Shown piece by piece: positions 591-27,351 of a stretch of 45,377 nt of DNA. The stretch's first letter is position 1, and each line of letters starts with the position of its first letter. Below the pieces are notes generated by a model. The model saw nothing but the letters and a program-made list of their open reading frames with translations, searched no databases and had not been told where the DNA came from. This DNA comes from Eubacteriales Family XIII. Incertae Sedis bacterium (GTDB lineage Bacteria > Bacillota > Clostridia > Peptostreptococcales > Anaerovoracaceae), in assembly GCA_031276515.1 (NCBI GenBank), contig JAISMX010000118.1, positions 1 through 45,377 on the forward strand, given 5' to 3'. Made by a program: the position numbers and the translations under genes.

Positions 591-759
591 GAGAAAATCC
601 GCATTGCGTTCAACCTGCCTTTGGGTGTACAATAAGACAAAGGTTTTTTGACGCTTGCCGTCCAAGGCTATGACACCGGCACGATAACCGCAATAACGGC
701 CGGACTGCTTCGCTTTGCTCGCAATGACGGAGGATGCACAGCCGCAGAGGTTTGGAACA

Positions 760-996
760 ATGAACAAATATACGGAAATTTCCCCGGAACAGTCGTATTT
801 TGCCGTATTTTGCATTGAGGCATTGTCCGACGAATTGGGTGTGCCGGGCGATAAGGTTTACAGATTGCTCACGGAGGACAGCGACATTTTGGATGCCTAT
901 ATCCTGCCTTTCCACGACGCGCTGCACACGCAGGGCAAAGGCTACATTGTCCGGGAACTGAAAGAACTCCTGCAAAAGCGAGGCCTTTTGAAATGA
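760..996 (+). CDS. Small helical protein, DUF3791-like (family recognised from memory)
   Basis: ATG at 760 is preceded by AGAGG at 746-750. The product is MNKYTEISPEQSYFAVFCIEALSDELGV...LHTQGKGYIVRELKELL. The stop overlaps the next start (ATGA at 993-996). Confidence 0.7.
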   Translation: MNKYTEISPEQSYFAVFCIEALSDELGVPGDKVYRLLTEDSDILDAYILPFHDALHTQGKGYIVRELKELLQKRGLLK

Positions 997-1484
997 TGCT
1001 TTACCACGGCTCGTACACGGTTGTTGAAAAGCCGGATTTGTCTTATTCCCGGCTTCGTACAGATTTTGGAAAAGGTTTTTATCTCACGCCTCTGAAAGCG
1101 CAGGCGAAAAGCTGGGCGGCACGGTTTCTCCGCGAACGCGGTTCCGCTGTTTTGTCGATGTATGCGTTTTTGCCGAACCCGGGTGACAAACTCCCGGCCG
1201 AACTGAATATTCTCGAATTTGACACGCACAGTTTGGAATGGCTCGAATTCATTACGGCTTGCCGACTTGGGCAGTCTGTCGGCACGGCGCCGGACTTGGT
1301 GATCGGCGGCGTTGCCAACGACAAGGTGTTTGATACGCTCCAACTGTACTTTGATAAACTGATCGGAGCGGAAGAAGCCATCGGGCGATTGCGGTACAAC
1401 AAACCGAATTTCCAATACTGTTTCAAAAACCAAGCCCTGATTGACGGCTATCTCGCGTATAAGCATTCGGAGGTGTTGAAATGA
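993..1484 (+). CDS. DUF3990-like protein with a PARP-like HGS / GKGFY motif pair (candidate ADP-ribosyltransferase fold)
   Basis: 163 aa: MMLYHGSYTVVEKPDLSYSRLRTDFGKGFYLTPLKAQAKSWA... ATGA overlaps are present at both ends (993-996 and 1481-1484). Confidence 0.75.
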   Translation: MMLYHGSYTVVEKPDLSYSRLRTDFGKGFYLTPLKAQAKSWAARFLRERGSAVLSMYAFLPNPGDKLPAELNILEFDTHSLEWLEFITACRLGQSVGTAPDLVIGGVANDKVFDTLQLYFDKLIGAEEAIGRLRYNKPNFQYCFKNQALIDGYLAYKHSEVLK

Positions 1485-1702
1485 TTGCCAACCGCACCCT
1501 CATCGGACACAAATGCGATCATGTCATCAAAGCCTATGCCGAATTTGCGGGCGTATCGCTTCGTGAGGCGTTGGATGTGTTTTATAAATCAAATCTGTAT
1601 ACGGAAATTCGCGACGGCATTTCCGATATGCACTGCCGAAGCGACGGCTATCTCGCGGAGGAATTGCTGCTTGAAGTGAATCGCGGGGGCGAAGATGCGT
1701 AA
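1481..1702 (+). CDS. Small helical protein, second DUF3791-like paralogue
   Basis: 73 aa. It shares ...[LM]H-x4-GY[IL]-x-[RE]EL with the 760-996 product (DMHCRSDGYLAEELL versus ALHTQGKGYIVRELK). It overlaps the flippase start by 8 nt. Confidence 0.7.
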   Translation: MIANRTLIGHKCDHVIKAYAEFAGVSLREALDVFYKSNLYTEIRDGISDMHCRSDGYLAEELLLEVNRGGEDA

Positions 1703-3356
1703 AAAGACATTTCTGACGGGCGCCGCCATCCTCGGCGCGGCGGGCCTGATCGTGCAGATGATGGGCGCGGTGTTCCGCATTCCGCTCGCGAACATCATCG
1801 GCGAGGTGGGCATGGGCTACTACCAGACGGCCTATCCCGTCTATATCTTCCTGCTCGTCTTTTCGACGAACGGCGCGCCTGCGGCCATATCGAAGATGAC
1901 CTCGGAGCGCATCGCGGCCGGGCGCCGCGCGGAGGCCCACCGCGTGTTCAGGCTGGCCTTCGTCGTCATGCTCGCATTCGGACTCGCGGCCGCGCTCGGC
2001 GTGGCGCTCTTCGCGGCGCCGCTCGCGCACTTCGTGAAGAGCGAGGGTTCGTATTTTTCGCTGCTCGCGATCGCCCCCTCCCTGCTCTTCGTGCCGCTCA
2101 TGTCCGTGTTTCGCGGATATTTTCAGGGCATGCAGGAGATGCGCCCGACGGCCGTGTCGCAGCTTTTCGAGCAGGCCATACGCGTGGGCGTGGGCCTCGG
2201 TCTCGCCGTGTTTTTCGTCTCCGACAGCCTGGAGTTAGCTTCGGCCGGCGCGTGCTTCGGCGCGAGCGTCGGACCCGTGGCCGGCATACTGATCCTCATC
2301 GTCATCTACGCGCGCCGGAAGCGCCGGGCGGGCGGATCGCCGGCGCCGGCGCCGCTTGCGCGCGGACGGACGCCGGACGGCGCCGGGCGCGCGACAAACG
2401 GCGCCGGGCATGAGACGGACGCCGGCGGCGAAAGCGCGGGCGCGCTCCTGAAAACCCTGGTCGCGCTGACCGTTCCCACGACGATAGGCATATCCATATT
2501 GCCGATCATGAACGTGGTCGATATGCTGCTCTGCCGCATACGGCTGATCGACGCGGGCTTCGGCGCGCTGGAAGCGGAAGGCCTGTACGGGCTGATGGCG
2601 GGTTTCGCGGCCCCCATCATCAACATTCCGATGGCGCTGGCCCTCAGCATAGCGCTGAGCATGGTGCCGGCCGTCGCGGCGGCCTGCGGCGCGGGAGACA
2701 GGGATTTTCTCGACACGAACATCCGCATGGGCCTACGCACGGCCATGATCATAGGCGTACCCTGCGCCCTCGGTCTCATGCTGCTCGCGGAACCCATACT
2801 CAGGCTCATCTATCCCGCGCAGACCGTCGCCATTTCCGCCGCGCCCTGCCTCGCCATACTCGGCGCGGGCGTCGTGTTCCTCTGCGTGGCGCAGGCCATG
2901 GCCGGCATCCTGCAAGGGTTGGGGCGCGCCTCGTTGCCCGTCGTCTCTCTGCTCGCAGGGCTTGCGGTCAAGTTCGCGCTCACCTACGCGCTGACGGCCT
3001 TGCCCGCGCTGAACATAAACGGCGCCGCGCTGGGGAGCACGGCCGGATACGCCGTAGTGGGCATTCTGAATCTCGTCTTCGTCAAACGCGCGGCGGGCGT
3101 CCGCTTCGACGCGATGCTCTCGGTCGTGAAGCCGCTGGCATCGGGCGCGCTGATGTGCGTGGCCCTCGGGATCGTCTATTTCGTCTGCCGGATCTTTCTG
3201 TCCCTCGGCATGTCCACGCTGGCGGCCATCGGCGCCGCCGCCGTCGCCTACGTTCCCGCCATCCTGAAATCCGGCGCCGTTCTGCCGCACGAGGTGGAGC
3301 TTTTGCCCAAGGGTAAGGCATTGGCCGCCCTGCTGCGAAAGCTTCGGCTCATATAA
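1695..3356 (+). CDS. MurJ/SpoVB-type (MOP superfamily) lipid II / polysaccharide flippase-like membrane protein
   Basis: 553 aa and polytopic. The N-terminus MRKKTFLTGAAILGAAGLIVQMMGAVFRIPLANIIG..GMGYYQ.AYPVY is typical of the family. A Gly/Ala/Pro/Arg-rich cytoplasmic loop lies mid-protein. Confidence 0.85.
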   Translation: MRKKTFLTGAAILGAAGLIVQMMGAVFRIPLANIIGEVGMGYYQTAYPVYIFLLVFSTNGAPAAISKMTSERIAAGRRAEAHRVFRLAFVVMLAFGLAAALGVALFAAPLAHFVKSEGSYFSLLAIAPSLLFVPLMSVFRGYFQGMQEMRPTAVSQLFEQAIRVGVGLGLAVFFVSDSLELASAGACFGASVGPVAGILILIVIYARRKRRAGGSPAPAPLARGRTPDGAGRATNGAGHETDAGGESAGALLKTLVALTVPTTIGISILPIMNVVDMLLCRIRLIDAGFGALEAEGLYGLMAGFAAPIINIPMALALSIALSMVPAVAAACGAGDRDFLDTNIRMGLRTAMIIGVPCALGLMLLAEPILRLIYPAQTVAISAAPCLAILGAGVVFLCVAQAMAGILQGLGRASLPVVSLLAGLAVKFALTYALTALPALNINGAALGSTAGYAVVGILNLVFVKRAAGVRFDAMLSVVKPLASGALMCVALGIVYFVCRIFLSLGMSTLAAIGAAAVAYVPAILKSGAVLPHEVELLPKGKALAALLRKLRLI

Positions 3357-7483: not shown

Positions 7484-7570
7484 GCCGGCGTGATGGAATT
7501 GGCAGACGTGCCGGACTCAAAATCCGGTGGTGGCAACACCGTATCGGTTCGACCCCGATCGCCGGCACCA
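7484..7570 (+). tRNA. tRNA-Leu (anticodon CAA), class II with long variable arm, CCA encoded
   Basis: Hand-folded. Acceptor is GCCGGCG/CGCCGGC. The anticodon arm is CCGGA-CTCAAAA-TCCGG. The T arm is ATCGG-TTCGACC-CCGAT. The discriminator is A, followed by CCA. Confidence 0.9.
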
Positions 7571-7668
7571 TTCGATCTTTCCCTTTTATCCAAGACCCGC
7601 GTACGCGGATGTGCTTGGATTGTCGTCTCGGAACAGCGGAATGCAGGGTCAATACGCATTCGTTTCGT

Positions 7669-7751
7669 GCGGTTGTGGCGGAATAGGCAGACGCGCACGG
7701 TTGAGGGCCGTGTTCGAGAGAGTAAGGGTTCAAGTCCCTTCAACCGCACCA
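7669..7751 (+). tRNA. tRNA-Leu (anticodon GAG), class II, CCA encoded
   Basis: Hand-folded. Acceptor is GCGGTTG/CAACCGC. The anticodon arm is CACGG-TTGAGGG-CCGTG. The T arm is AAGGG-TTCAAGT-CCCTT, followed by A-CCA. Confidence 0.9.
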
Positions 7752-7758
7752 AGCAAAT

Positions 7759-7805
7759 ACTGCATTCAGGGCTTAAATAAAAAGGCCTTGAATGCAGTTA
7801 TTTCT
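7759..7805 (+). terminator. Rho-independent terminator after the tRNA pair
   Basis: A 14-bp stem ACTGCATTCAGGGC / GGCCTTGAATGCAGT (one G-U pair) is followed by TATTTCT. Confidence 0.6.
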
Positions 7806-7906
7806 ATAAAAGGGCTATTTCGCAATGTCATCGTATTTTGAAAGAGACGCAAAATCAAAATCCGCAACAATTGCAAATTTATATGAAAAGAGGCGGTCAA
7901 TCTGAG

Positions 7907-8143
7907 ATGAACGGTATTATGAAAGCAACTGCGTTGAGTCTTTTCTCCGGAATTGGCGGGTTTGAAGTTGGAATGTCAAGGTGTGGTTTTTCATTTTTGA
8001 AAACCCTCGAATGGGATGAGAACTGCTGTAAAACTTTGAGCCAAAACAAGATACTGACGGGTACCGCCGAATGCGAGATAAATACTGCGGATATAACGAA
8101 AACATCGCCGGAAGAGTTTTACAACGGGGATGTAGACTATTGA
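7907..8143 (+). pseudogene. N-terminal fragment of a C5 DNA-cytosine methyltransferase-like gene (motifs I-III only)
   Basis: The product is MNGIMKATALSLFSGIGGFEVGMSRCGF....LEWDENCCKTLSQN...ADITKTSPEEFYNGDVDY followed by TGA at 8141. The stop falls exactly where motif IV (GGPPCQ) should begin. Confidence 0.75.
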
Positions 8144-8901
8144 TAAAAAACGGGCAACAATTGTCATTTGATAAGCGAAAAGGAGAAAAAGCAAGAAGAT
8201 CGCGTTCAAAAAAGACACTTGCGTATGCGGACTTAAAGCAACTCAATTTGTTCGATTTGGAGAATGAAAAAATTTGCGCTTATCCGGAATTCAAACGAGA
8301 ATACAATATTTCAGGCATTCTTTCCATTTGGTCATTTGTCGGCGGTAAGCTCGACATAATTTTAGGAGATGAGCCAATAAGCGACACACCGAAGACCGAC
8401 ATCACATTGACTTTTTTCGGAACCGTGACGTCAAATATTAGGCAAATCAGAGCATCGGCGCATTGCGCGCTAAATAACGGCGAAGAATTGCGAATTCTTT
8501 GGTCTGAGATACATAGAGCAATAAGCGAAATAACGTCATATGATTCGCTCATACCGCTTTATGGGCATTTTACCGAACCATATCCCAAATTTGAGATTCA
8601 TTTTAGAACTTCATCGACGGCTCAAGCGTCCGTATTTCAAAAACTGGCCTTGGACGGAGGAATGCTGAGCAAAATCCAACCGTATTCGCTTCTTGGAGAT
8701 ATTGATAACAACGTTGATGTTTTCTTGAAATCCATGCGTGAATTTGGATACGATGTTCGCACAAATCATACAAACAGAACAATCCCCGCGCAGCATTTCA
8801 GAATCTGTTATCCATTTACGATGCCCGCTGACGCGAAGAACAATATTGTATGGGCGGGCGGCATGGCGCAAGGTGTTTTATACGGACGAAGATTGTTGTA
8901 A
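8071..8901 (+). pseudogene. Frame-1 ORF that continues the same methyltransferase-like gene with degenerate motifs (or an uncharacterised 276-aa protein)
   Basis: From 8137 it reads LLIKNGQQLSFDKRKGEKARRSRSKKTLAYADLKQLNLFDLENEK. Compare M.HhaI [49 protein letters not shown]: the KxKG-to-EN[VE] spacing is nearly the same (25 versus 26 aa). PC is replaced by GQ and ENV by ENE. Confidence 0.45.
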
Positions 8902-9034
8902 AATATGGGCAAGGGACGAGCGAGGGCGGTCCATTCCGGGAAGCTATAGTATGCGAGGTGCGGATGAGGGAATCAGCATCCCTCTTCTCGCCAAACACGA
9001 TTTATGTTCGGGTTTCTGTTCGGACAATTCCGGT

Positions 9035-9721
9035 ATGCAGGGCAGTCGCGCTGTTGAAAAAATGCGCTCCTTAAAGAGACTCGACGCTGATTTCGATACG
9101 GCGCAGCGGACGGTATTCGACTTGAAGCTCTTTGCCGCAATCGATGTGCGCAAATTCCTTGCGGATACAGCAGACCCCGAACTAACAAAATGTGTCGTTG
9201 CCGCTTGTCTCGACGTTATATTCGCTCCGCATGGTTGTATGCTTGCGGGTGTAGAAGACTATAAAACCGCAGCGGACGCCAGAGCTCGAAAGCCAGGAGA
9301 TCTTTGTGTCGTTTATAATGGAGAACCAAGAATTGCCGTTGAAGTCAAAGATAAAACGCAAACCATAGATTGGAATAACATTGAACGAGCGAAGAAAATC
9401 ATTGATGCCAATGGTGCTGTTCGTGACTTTGTCTTTGTATTGGAGCGAAAGCAGTCGATATCACATCCCATTATTGCCGAAATGTTCTCCGCGCCAAAAT
9501 TCGATAAAGACCCATATAACAGAATATCTATAGTTTCCTTTCAGGATATGTATTTATTGGCTTTATCGATTGCCGACTCTGATGCGATTGCGGCTAAGAC
9601 ATCGGAGTTCATCGCTTTGGCTCCCGCAATCAAACCCGAAACCAAAGACAGATGGATCGATGCCGTAAACAAAGCGATTAACACACAAGCCGAAGAAAAC
9701 GACATGAAGAGCGGGAATTAA
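9035..9721 (+). CDS. Putative PD-(D/E)xK restriction-type endonuclease
   Basis: Candidate ATGs are at 9035 and 9062, and the ORF is open upstream to 8738. The motif is GVEDYK...KPGDLCVVYNGEPRIAVEVKDK, which fits the E...PD...EVK pattern. A terminator lies downstream. Confidence 0.6.
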   Translation: MQGSRAVEKMRSLKRLDADFDTAQRTVFDLKLFAAIDVRKFLADTADPELTKCVVAACLDVIFAPHGCMLAGVEDYKTAADARARKPGDLCVVYNGEPRIAVEVKDKTQTIDWNNIERAKKIIDANGAVRDFVFVLERKQSISHPIIAEMFSAPKFDKDPYNRISIVSFQDMYLLALSIADSDAIAAKTSEFIALAPAIKPETKDRWIDAVNKAINTQAEENDMKSGN

Positions 9722-9781
9722 CCGCATATGCACGGCAATCGTCCATAAAGGTTACGACAAACCAATCGGCCAATACAAACT

Positions 9782-9814
9782 CACTTTCAAATTTAATTTG
9801 AGAGTGTTTTTTTT
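9782..9814 (+). terminator. Rho-independent terminator at the end of the AT-rich islet
   Basis: The stem is CACTTTCAAA / TTTGAGAGTG, the loop is TTTAA, and a T8 run follows. Confidence 0.65.
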
Positions 9815-9902
9815 GCCAAACGCAAAGGCCGCCGGCGAAGCCGCAGCGAAGCGGTATTTTGAAGTAAATGCATTTTATTTGAAAATATTTCTAAAAATGT
9901 TC

Positions 9903-9931
9903 TTGACATGAATAATAAACAGTGATATGAT
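9903..9931 (+). promoter_or_regulatory. Strong SigA-type promoter of the tad/flp operon
   Basis: TTGACA (9903-9908), 17-nt spacer, TGaTATGAT (hexamer 9926-9931). Confidence 0.6.
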
Positions 9932-9954
9932 TCAATTGCAAAATACATGGAGAT

Positions 9955-26061: not shown

Positions 26062-27351
26062 TTATATCCGAACGATATACACCTTTTCTTTGCCGACCTT
26101 GCGATACGACAACAGTTCACGCTCCACCATTCGTTGCAACAGCTTGTACGCACCGCTGAGGGATATGCCGAGCAATTCCGCCGTCTCTTGTTTCGTGAAC
26201 TCCGATTTGAAGAAATCCGCAATCTTCTGTTCTTTGTCGGTTAGGAGAGGTTTTGCGGCAAGTTGCAAGACATGGTTCAAATTGGGCAGGCTGATCAGAA
26301 ATCCGCCGCTCGTAATGGGGATGGCGGGAGAGACTCCGAACTTCGCATAGGTTTCAAATATGCGCGGAATCCCGGTGCCGTAGGCTTCGATCAGCTTCAA
26401 TCGGTGGAACACCGCCGCCAACTTCTCGTTGCGCGGAACGGACACGCCCGCCCGCATAAGTTCCCGCGTCACACCCGGCATAATCCCACCGAGCGACATG
26501 ATCTCAAGCCTGTCGTCGAACACACTCACCAAAATACTGCCTTCAATGTAATAATCGCGGTGAATTATGGCGTTCAGCAACGCCTCGCGCAAAACGATTT
26601 CCGGGTAGTCCGGTCGGTCAATGCGATACGCGCCCTCAAACGTGGACGCGACTTTGTTATATACGTTCAGATACGCCAAAACCTCGTCAATCTGCCGAAA
26701 CACCGAACCTGTAAATTCATTCCTGTCCTTGAAGGTTTCTTTGGTCATGCCGCCGAAAATCGCCGCCTTGACCGAATATGGGCATTGGTCGGACAGAATC
26801 AGGGCGAGATTGGAATAGCGTCCGTCGGCGCGGATCAGTCCGAGCGACTTCCGTTGCGTTTCGCCGAAAACAACATCTTTTTCCCCGAAAATACGCGCAG
26901 CATAGTCAAAAGTGAGTTCTTGGTTCAATGAAAGAGCTTCAATAAACTTCTCACCGTCGTTCTCGCGTATCATCTGCTTGATATGCTCTCGCGATGCCGA
27001 AACGCTCTCGCTCCCGATGCGAACATACACGCCCTGCGGCACAAGTCCGTGGGATTTCAGACAATATGGCAAAGCCGCTCCGCGCTCCACAGAGATTTCG
27101 ACAACAGTCTTTCCTTCGCGCCGGATCGGTGAAGCATTGAAATATCCGGTAGGGTCGGGATTTATCGAATCGCGGAAGCTGTTGACCGCTTTGAGCAAAA
27201 GTCCGTCAACGTCGTCAACACCGACAACATTTCCATCGTCGGCAATGCCGATATACAGCGTTCCGCCGTCCGTATTCAGAAACGATAGCAGAACCTTGTT
27301 CACCTTATCGTTGTAAACGCTCTTGAACTCCGTGCTTGTGTTTTCAATCAT
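26062..27351 (-). CDS. AlbA_2 (Schlafen-like) plus HATPase_c_4 plus wHTH putative transcriptional regulator ('RecG-like' annotation class)
   Basis: The product is MIENTSTEFKSVYNDKVNKVLLSFLNTDGGTLYIGIADDGNVVG ... REALLNAIIHRDY ... AYGTGIPRI, with a C-terminal wHTH (ETAELLGISLSGAYKLLQRM). Confidence 0.8.
   Translation of the reverse strand: MIENTSTEFKSVYNDKVNKVLLSFLNTDGGTLYIGIADDGNVVGVDDVDGLLLKAVNSFRDSINPDPTGYFNASPIRREGKTVVEISVERGAALPYCLKSHGLVPQGVYVRIGSESVSASREHIKQMIRENDGEKFIEALSLNQELTFDYAARIFGEKDVVFGETQRKSLGLIRADGRYSNLALILSDQCPYSVKAAIFGGMTKETFKDRNEFTGSVFRQIDEVLAYLNVYNKVASTFEGAYRIDRPDYPEIVLREALLNAIIHRDYYIEGSILVSVFDDRLEIMSLGGIMPGVTRELMRAGVSVPRNEKLAAVFHRLKLIEAYGTGIPRIFETYAKFGVSPAIPITSGGFLISLPNLNHVLQLAAKPLLTDKEQKIADFFKSEFTKQETAELLGISLSGAYKLLQRMVERELLSYRKVGKEKVYIVRI

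Follow-up and report, generated by a model that had tools for sequence, protein, structure and literature searches.

Locus Organization and Composition

The 45,377-nucleotide stretch of DNA analyzed here, hereafter the window (positions 1-45,377 of contig JAISMX010000118.1, from a Family XIII. Incertae Sedis bacterium of the Eubacteriales), carries three short open reading frames (ORFs) that we call genes A, B, and C in order and together the triad. Gene A (760-996, + strand) encodes a protein of 78 amino acids (aa), gene B (993-1484, +) one of 163 aa, and gene C (1481-1702, +) one of 73 aa. Start and stop codons overlap as ATGA at both the A/B and the B/C junction, and a Shine-Dalgarno-like sequence can be read for each of the three genes. 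For gene A, this is AGAGG at 746-750 (+), 9 nucleotides (nt) ahead of the ATG. The end of gene C runs 8 nt past the ATG, at 1695, of a gene for a SpoVB/MurJ-type polysaccharide flippase (1695-3356, +, 553 aa), which was identified by Pfam and NCBIfam matches and lies outside the cassette. An identical 10-nt sequence, TTGAAATGAT, occurs at both junctions (988-997 and 1476-1485). The A and B proteins both terminate in L-K-stop, and the ATG of the next gene overlaps there.

The triad is compositionally foreign to its surroundings. Its G+C content is 50.5%, compared with 66.8% for the flippase gene and 57.4% for the whole window, and its G+C at third codon positions is 57-62% versus 86% for the flippase gene. 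A preliminary description of this DNA, made from the letters alone, had given the three ORFs, their coordinates, the ATGA overlaps, the 8-nt flippase overlap, and the lower G+C content of the triad exactly as we find them.

Assignment to a Candidate Defense System

The three proteins matched the PADLOC models PDC-M13A (E 2.5e-24), PDC-M13B (E 5e-53), and PDC-M13C (E 1.5e-26) in A-B-C order. Judged by three adjacent same-strand genes matching these models, and not by PADLOC's own system rules, the triad is a copy of the PADLOC candidate PDC-M13. PDC systems are candidates predicted on the grounds that their genes lie within BREX, DISARM, or type I restriction-modification (RM) loci, and the supplement of the originating study records a three-family cassette with the entry "Assign as candidate PDC-M13" (Payne et al., bioRxiv 10.1101/2024.01.29.577857). 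DUF3990, DUF3791, and ADP-ribosylation are unmentioned in its main text and in the supplements consulted. The reported count of PDC-M13 across 6,530 rumen genomes is 3,324 (PMC13356809).

A literature search returned no function for DUF3990, the Pfam family of B, or for DUF3791, that of A. The triad itself is not a new idea, having already been catalogued as PDC-M13. What this work adds is a family-wide H-Y-Q signature in B, the existence of C+A, A+B, and B+C fusions, the cross-phylum spread of the cassette, the lack of a detectable structural relative for DUF3791, and the demonstration that the link to the flippase is accidental.

Synteny and Gene Fusions

Gene order was assessed at 80 loci of GTDB species genomes. 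A-B-C was complete, in the same order and on the same strand, in 76 of these loci, and the remaining 4 end at contig edges. Gene A lay upstream of B in 78/80 loci, and gene C lay downstream of B in 78/80. Of 78 loci, 65 have ATGA between A and B, and 60 have it between B and C. Loci without it mostly have GTGA or TTGA at the same place.

Natural fusions join the same partners. We found one A+B fusion (P0159), B+C fusions that fall into three distinct 50%-identity clusters (P0134, P0165, and P0174), and a 149-aa C+A fusion upstream of B, which is carried by the Bacteroides conjugative plasmid pBF9343 and by one viral contig. In the 149-aa protein, the C profile matches the N-terminal half (independent E-value 2.8e-7), and the C-terminal half is matched by both the A profile (8e-13) and Pfam DUF3791 (1e-18). 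Because A+B, B+C, and C+A fusions all occur, this Rosetta-stone evidence suggests joint action of A and C on B. The fusions indicate that A, B, and C form one complex. Among the 70 viral contigs with B relatives, the architecture is A-B-C in 9, A-B in 44, and B alone in 17, so the A-B core is older, with C added in this clade.

Two further kinds of unusual copy were observed. In loci L083 and L116, B is present as two ORFs while A and C are intact; as an anecdotal point, the split B fits selection against an active toxin. In the cluster representatives P0248 and P0238, a Methylase_S fragment (type I restriction specificity subunit) is joined to DUF3990. These could be read-through gene calls in copies embedded in RM loci or real fusions.

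Neighborhoods and Spread of the Cassette

The genes flanking the 80 loci were highly diverse, with 172 Pfam families among 125 upstream genes and 162 among 133 downstream genes. No Pfam family occurred more than 4 times, and no conserved fourth gene was found in these neighborhoods. The neighbors are mostly housekeeping genes, and a minority are defense or toxin-antitoxin (TA) genes. In a metagenome-assembled genome (MAG) of Faecousia (L076, 2086-6749), the triad lies directly downstream of BREX pglX on the same strand. In an Accumulibacter MAG (L029, 1142-6690), it lies directly downstream of Wadjet jetC, again on the same strand. PDC-S01, PDC-S05, GmrSD, HipA, and Fic genes also stand beside the triad in some loci. 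Among close relatives, similarity begins at the ribosome-binding site of gene A, and the DNA further upstream diverges. Because this upstream DNA is not conserved, the conserved unit consists of the three ORFs only.

Copies with 59-77% amino-acid identity were found in more than 10 phylum-level groups, among them Firmicutes, Actinobacteria (Coriobacteriales), Spirochaetes, Synergistetes, Fibrobacteres, Beta- and Alphaproteobacteria, Campylobacterota, Kiritimatiellaeota, and Planctomycetota. The MAGs that hold the closest triad relatives (L001-L037, about 50-77% identity) belong to widely separated phyla, and many of them bear termite-gut metagenome sample codes (Emb289, Th196, Nt197, Nc150, and others). 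This observation suggests intense cross-phylum exchange of the triad within the termite-gut habitat. Two Treponema MAGs hold two triad copies each (L012/L030 and L036/L037).

Relatives of B were also found in 85 plasmid records, of which 28 are conjugative, and on the 70 viral contigs noted above, which include very large phages and whose B relatives are mostly 24-53% identical. The cassette is horizontally acquired and mobile. The survey of DUF3990 neighborhoods that had been proposed as a check returned strict A-B-C synteny, hypervariable flanks, and carriage on plasmids and viruses. On plasmid pBF9343 (L082, NC_006873.1, 3555-5615), the C+A fusion is followed by DUF3990, a small ORF, and a gene of the zeta-toxin family. 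This cluster amounts to two toxin-type modules inside a transfer region, and it is also present on many related plasmids.

Fold and Active-Site Motifs of Protein B

B matched Pfam DUF3990 (PF13151) with 147.4 bits (E 3.5e-43) over profile positions 1-147 of 152, against a gathering cut-off of 32.2 bits. DUF3990 is placed in the Pfam ADP-ribosyltransferase (ART) clan (PMC7955679). The same family forms the C-terminal domain of type VI secretion system Rhs effectors in Serratia (Rhs5) and Enterobacter (RhsA). B also reached 20.8 bits (E 7e-4) on ART-PolyVal (PF18760), over the N-terminal 66 residues only and below the cut-off of 31.2 bits, and several B relatives were likewise sub-threshold on this profile (profile E 7e-4 to 4e-5 overall). 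No Pfam PARP match to B was obtained at E <= 1, nor a DarT or RES match, and searches of NCBIfam and PHROGs gave no significant match for A, B, or C.

Sequence and profile searches of B found no credible relative among solved structures. An AlphaFold2 model of B, built on an alignment of 38 homologues with 69-88% identity, had a mean predicted local distance difference test (pLDDT) score of 82.8 and a predicted template modeling score of 0.77. When this model was compared by Foldseek with the Protein Data Bank (PDB), the best match was the RES toxin of the Pseudomonas putida Xre-RES complex (9r35_A, E 7e-4). Ranks 2-34 were tankyrases and PARP10, and cholera and heat-labile toxin A chains also matched. 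The leading PDB matches were all ARTs, and the template modeling (TM) scores of the B model to solved ARTs were 0.40-0.48. Against viral models, the best match was an unnamed protein (TM 0.76, E 1e-10), and further matches included ART-PolyVal proteins (E 1.5e-4, TM 0.51-0.55), a rifampin ART, DarT, and an iridovirus PARP-like protein. As far as computation tells, B is an ART-fold protein.

An exhaustive search for B relatives yielded 2,515 cluster representatives at E <= 1e-3, and conservation was scored in an alignment of 81 full-length members with 31-67% identity to B. H5-G6-S7, the first ART motif (codons 1005-1013, +), lies at the end of predicted strand 1 (residues 2-7). H5 is kept in 77/81 relatives, G6 in 69/81, and S7 in 71/81. 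The second motif, D24-F25-G26-K27-G28-F29-Y30 (codons 1062-1082, +), runs into a predicted strand at residues 29-32, and its tyrosine is the predicted nicotinamide-stacking residue. D24, F25, F29, and Y30 are each kept in 79/81 relatives and G26 in 78/81. Q141 (codon 1413-1415, +), the candidate third-motif residue, stands directly before predicted strand 142-144 and is kept in 80/81. Conservation also reaches at least 90% at T32, Q37, A38, W83, D101, G105, A108, and D110, and R91 does not vary. By strand position, Q141 falls at the place of the catalytic Glu of PARPs and diphtheria-type toxins. The catalytic triad of this ART clade is given as H-Y-[E,D,Q] (PMC11618068). Based on the strand position of Q141 and this clade-level triad, B is a candidate H-Y-Q enzyme.

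These results bear on several points of the preliminary description. The HGS and FGKGFY motifs that it reported in B are present, but the spacer between them is 17 residues, not 20, and the motif tyrosine that it numbered Y29 is Y30. The motifs it quoted from PARP1, LWHGS...FGKGIYFA, were confirmed in PARP1 chains. Its label "PARP-like" holds for B at the level of the clade; B is not a member of the PARP family, and its nearest relative is ART-PolyVal. The proposed fold check, an AlphaFold model searched with Foldseek, retrieved ART-fold proteins almost exclusively. A lack of family-wide conservation had been named beforehand as one result that would refute the reading, and H5, G6, S7, and Y30 are largely kept across the 81 relatives. 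All the refuting tests in that description that lend themselves to computation were run, and none went against its proposal.

Proteins A and C

A matched Pfam DUF3791 (PF12668) with 62.2 bits (E 4.7e-17), above the cut-off of 25 bits, and C reached 16 bits (E 0.012), below it. Both proteins are helical and acidic, each with a pI of 5.0. The conserved motif of A is L55-H56-T57-Q58...Y62, and C conserves Y35-x-S37-x-x-Y40 and D49-M50-H51-C52-x-S54-D55-x-Y57-L58. When 79 A orthologues were aligned with 79 C orthologues by hhalign, the whole domain was colinear over 56 columns (P 0.0036). A and C also cross-match each other's PADLOC models, and one C orthologue carries the RefSeq name DUF3791. On account of the hhalign result, the cross-matches, and the RefSeq name, A and C appear to be ancient, distinct paralogues. 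The paralogy claimed for them at the outset is thus moderately supported, with C remaining sub-threshold on DUF3791. Of the motif that they were said to share, the His and Tyr are conserved family-wide, but the G of "GY" is not.

The AlphaFold model of A is a five-helix bundle (pLDDT 86). Compared with the PDB, it gave no significant structural match and no probability above 0.18, and sequence and profile searches of A found no credible relative among solved structures. One low-E match for A, the designed helical repeat protein 8gaa, was dismissed as compositional. A DNA-binding helix-turn-helix (HTH) function for A and C was considered and rejected, as the fold search lent it no support for A and both proteins have an acidic pI. 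Their acidity suits binding partners rather than DNA binders. Neither A nor C had a SecB or RES/HTH Pfam match.

Insertion Site and the Adjoining Flippase Gene

The overlap with the flippase ATG had been cited as a sign of translational coupling. We find that the overlap is incidental, an accident of insertion. None of 25 loci with flippase relatives carries A, B, or C, and 10 of these 25 retain downstream the UvrD/PD-(D/E)XK helicase-nuclease gene that also follows the flippase gene in the window. No flippase occurs among the approximately 260 neighbors of the 80 triad loci. A functional link between triad and flippase was rejected on these two counts, and the window is better annotated as having a flippase gene with foreign DNA inserted at its 5' end. 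A near-identical empty site, that is, a flippase locus without the triad, was sought and none was found. The closest flippase relatives are only 50-58% identical, so the exact boundaries of the insertion cannot be defined. One other flippase adjacency was seen, on a Parabacteroides distasonis plasmid (L083, NZ_OY725754.1, 4741-7200), where the triad is closely followed by the oligosaccharide flippase gene of a polysaccharide locus. In this copy, the split B is unannotated in RefSeq and both DUF3791 genes are intact.

The promoter and terminator scan of the locus gave nothing above shuffled expectation. Because the scan found no terminator, read-through transcription into the flippase gene is possible. 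By eye, a possible promoter for the triad can be read at 604-633 (+), with TTGCGT, an 18-nt spacer, TACAAT, and a TG just upstream of the latter, and is held with low confidence; the consensus scan did not call it because its -35 element matches at only 3/6 positions. Further upstream, an ORF at 82-513 encodes an SLH domain. The gene ends in a terminator-like hairpin with a T-run (556-596, +), an inverted repeat with 17-nt arms that lies outside the cassette, at the left boundary of the low-G+C insert. No direct or inverted repeats flank the cassette, there is no tRNA at the site, and Rfam found no RNA element within or near it.

An exact 15-nt direct repeat, GACGGCTATCTCGCG, is present at 1443-1457 and 1643-1657, with 0 expected from shuffles. 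It encodes D-G-Y-L-A near the C terminus of B and inside the conserved motif of C. Once overlaps from ORF calling are set aside, a B/C repeat of this type was seen in 0/80 related loci. The repeat may reflect a local gene-conversion event.

Proposed Function and Alternatives

We propose that the triad (760-1702) is a TA-like or abortive-infection cassette, a prediction that we place slightly on the probable side. B would be the effector or toxin, a predicted NAD+-binding protein of the H-Y-[E,D,Q] clade with H5, Y30, and Q141 as its putative catalytic triad. It would ADP-ribosylate an essential cellular or phage target or consume NAD+. A and C, as a pseudo-heterodimer of small acidic paralogues, would neutralize B by binding, and translational coupling would fix the stoichiometry of A/C. 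Since no macrodomain or other reversing enzyme accompanies the triad, neutralization would proceed by occlusion, the way of RES-Xre, MbcTA, and ParST, and not by reversal, the way of DarTG. One of the two small proteins, most likely C, may double as a trigger-sensing element, by analogy with fused toxin-antitoxin defense proteins. If A/C were lost or displaced, whether by phage infection or because the element is lost, B would be released and growth would stop.

NAD+ use, toxicity, neutralization by binding, the trigger, and an anti-phage role are the parts of this scheme that we infer. As read from the sequence, the locus has the generic layout of a type II-like TA module, with small partner genes overlapping the toxin gene in one operon on mobile DNA. 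The toxin/immunity or defense module put forward in the preliminary description gains support from the strict synteny, the hypervariable neighbors, the carriage on plasmids and phages, and the presence of DUF3990 in Rhs toxins. A more specific proposal is that an A-C heterodimer with a new helical fold restrains, and perhaps senses phage for, an H-Y-Q ART that modifies nucleic acid or an essential protein, which would make the triad a new tripartite ART abortive-infection system. We consider this possible but doubtful.

Several observations weigh against a TA-like or abortive-infection function. Most triad loci lie amid housekeeping genes and not in defense islands. No ADP-ribose-removing partner (macrodomain or ARH) is conserved near the triads of the 80 loci, and no conserved operator or promoter was found upstream of the triad among relatives. 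PDC-M13 itself has candidate status only in the study of Payne et al. The model of B was built on a shallow alignment of 38 sequences, and it reaches modest TM-scores against solved ARTs. The stable joining of B to A or C in fusion proteins is hard to square with a classical labile antitoxin. The third motif has an invariant Q, not E, which may mean weak or unusual chemistry, and the predicted equivalence of Q141 with the catalytic Glu comes from strand position, not from superposition. In PARP and diphtheria-toxin enzymes, a change from E to Q strongly lowers transfer. Catalysis by B is therefore not assured.

Among the alternatives, the triad could serve as an addiction or stabilization module of mobile elements, with B as the toxin and A/C as antitoxins acting in post-segregational killing and with no role in phage defense. 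The 85 plasmid records with B relatives, 28 of them conjugative, the pBF9343 pair adjoining a zeta-toxin gene within a transfer region, and the mostly solitary chromosomal copies amid housekeeping genes all point this way. However, some copies lie within or beside BREX and Wadjet loci, and the cassette was picked up by its embedding in defense systems. Many TA systems do both jobs, so that the two readings are not exclusive. In the form that denies any defense role, we consider this explanation unlikely. The invariant Q raises a different option, in which B is a catalytically inactive ART fold that only binds NAD+ or ADP-ribose and the triad is a small-molecule sensing or regulatory complex. 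Its stable fusions with A or C would suggest an obligate complex, and the charge of B is near neutral. This option is quite improbable, given that the full NAD-pocket signature is strongly constrained, along with invariant D24, R91, D101, and D110, that the triad accepted as catalytic for the clade is H-Y-[E,D,Q] (PMC11618068), and that DUF3990 sits in the toxin position of Rhs effectors.

A phage-derived or counter-defense function, in which B modifies host proteins or nucleic acids for a phage or element and A/C act as chaperones, would agree with the nearest fold and profile relatives of B, which are ART-PolyVal domains of phage polyvalent proteins, and with the 70 viral contigs, most of which carry A-B pairs. 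Yet no phage genes adjoin the window copy or most of the 80 loci, PHROGs gave no significant match, and the viral copies are distant, mostly 24-53% identical. We rate such a function as very unlikely. The adjoining flippase gene would allow the cassette to be a housekeeping or regulatory ART tied to envelope polysaccharide export, co-expressed with the flippase because it regulates that pathway. The 8-nt overlap of C with the flippase start, without a terminator between them, and the Parabacteroides distasonis plasmid triad just upstream of a flippase would fit this role. It is nevertheless highly improbable: 0/25 related flippase loci carry the triad, flippases are missing from the approximately 260 neighbors of the triad loci, the composition of the triad is foreign, and its neighbors are hypervariable.

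ART-based immunity, as in DarTG and CmdTAC, is a recent and active topic, and the present cassette is far commoner in anaerobic gut communities than either. If the triad is indeed a new tripartite ART system, it would rank among the commonest defense systems of anaerobic gut microbiomes, and the paired DUF3791 proteins would represent a new kind of neutralizer or sensor. Should B prove active, the invariant Gln that it has instead of the usual catalytic Glu would inform the chemistry of this clade. H5, Y30, and Q141, plus D24, R91, D101, and D110, are flagged as residues for mutation, and the natural fusion proteins simplify reconstitution of the complex.

Other Features of the Window

Two tRNA-Leu genes are present at 7484-7570 (anticodon CAA) and 7669-7751 (anticodon GAG). 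Directly after this pair lies a 43% G+C island (tRNA pair and island together, 7484-9950), whose ORFs at 8071-8901 and 8738-9721 have no Pfam match. The island resembles a second piece of inserted foreign DNA, located at a tRNA site. At 26062-27351 on the - strand, the window encodes a 429-aa protein with Schlafen AlbA_2 and HATPase_c_4 domains, an architecture that we take to be associated with defense or mobile regions.

Comparison with Known Systems

B shares the H-G-S and G-x-G-[FI]-Y motifs with PARP and tankyrase catalytic domains. It differs from them in its TM of about 0.4, its identity of 10-12%, its Q in place of E, its shorter motif spacing, and its lack of the PARP helical regulatory domain. 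By profile and by fold, the nearest relative of B is ART-PolyVal of phage and conjugative-element polyvalent proteins, and N-terminal H...Y motifs are common to both. ART-PolyVal is a domain of a giant multi-domain protein, whereas B is a stand-alone protein of 163 aa with two small partners. DUF3990 in the Rhs effectors Serratia Rhs5 and Enterobacter RhsA belongs to the same Pfam family as B and occupies the domain position of a polymorphic toxin. Unlike the cytoplasmic, stand-alone B, the Rhs proteins are fusion toxins that are secreted, and the family of the immunity gene downstream of them is unreported.

Among TA and defense modules, DarTG likewise has an ART-fold toxin, and DarT is among the weak fold matches of B. 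DarTG has a macrodomain antitoxin, whereas the triad has no macrodomain in the cassette or among its top neighbor families, and B has no DarT match. RES-Xre, MbcTA, and ParST, like the triad, combine a small ART-fold toxin with a tightly linked partner and have no ADP-ribose-removing enzyme. RES-Xre has R-E-S motifs and one Xre-type HTH antitoxin, whereas B has a candidate H-Y-Q signature, two DUF3791 partners, and no Pfam RES match. CmdTAC (PMC11618068) is a three-gene anti-phage system with an H-Y-[E,D,Q] ART effector and small partners required for folding and restraint of the enzyme; the likeness of CmdT to B is drawn from descriptions, not from direct comparison. CmdA is a ChAD-tailed antitoxin and CmdC a SecB-like chaperone, whereas A and C are mutual paralogues with no SecB match. 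PDC-M13 consists of the same three families in the same order, and the triad of the window, judged by its model matches, is a member with no difference from it.

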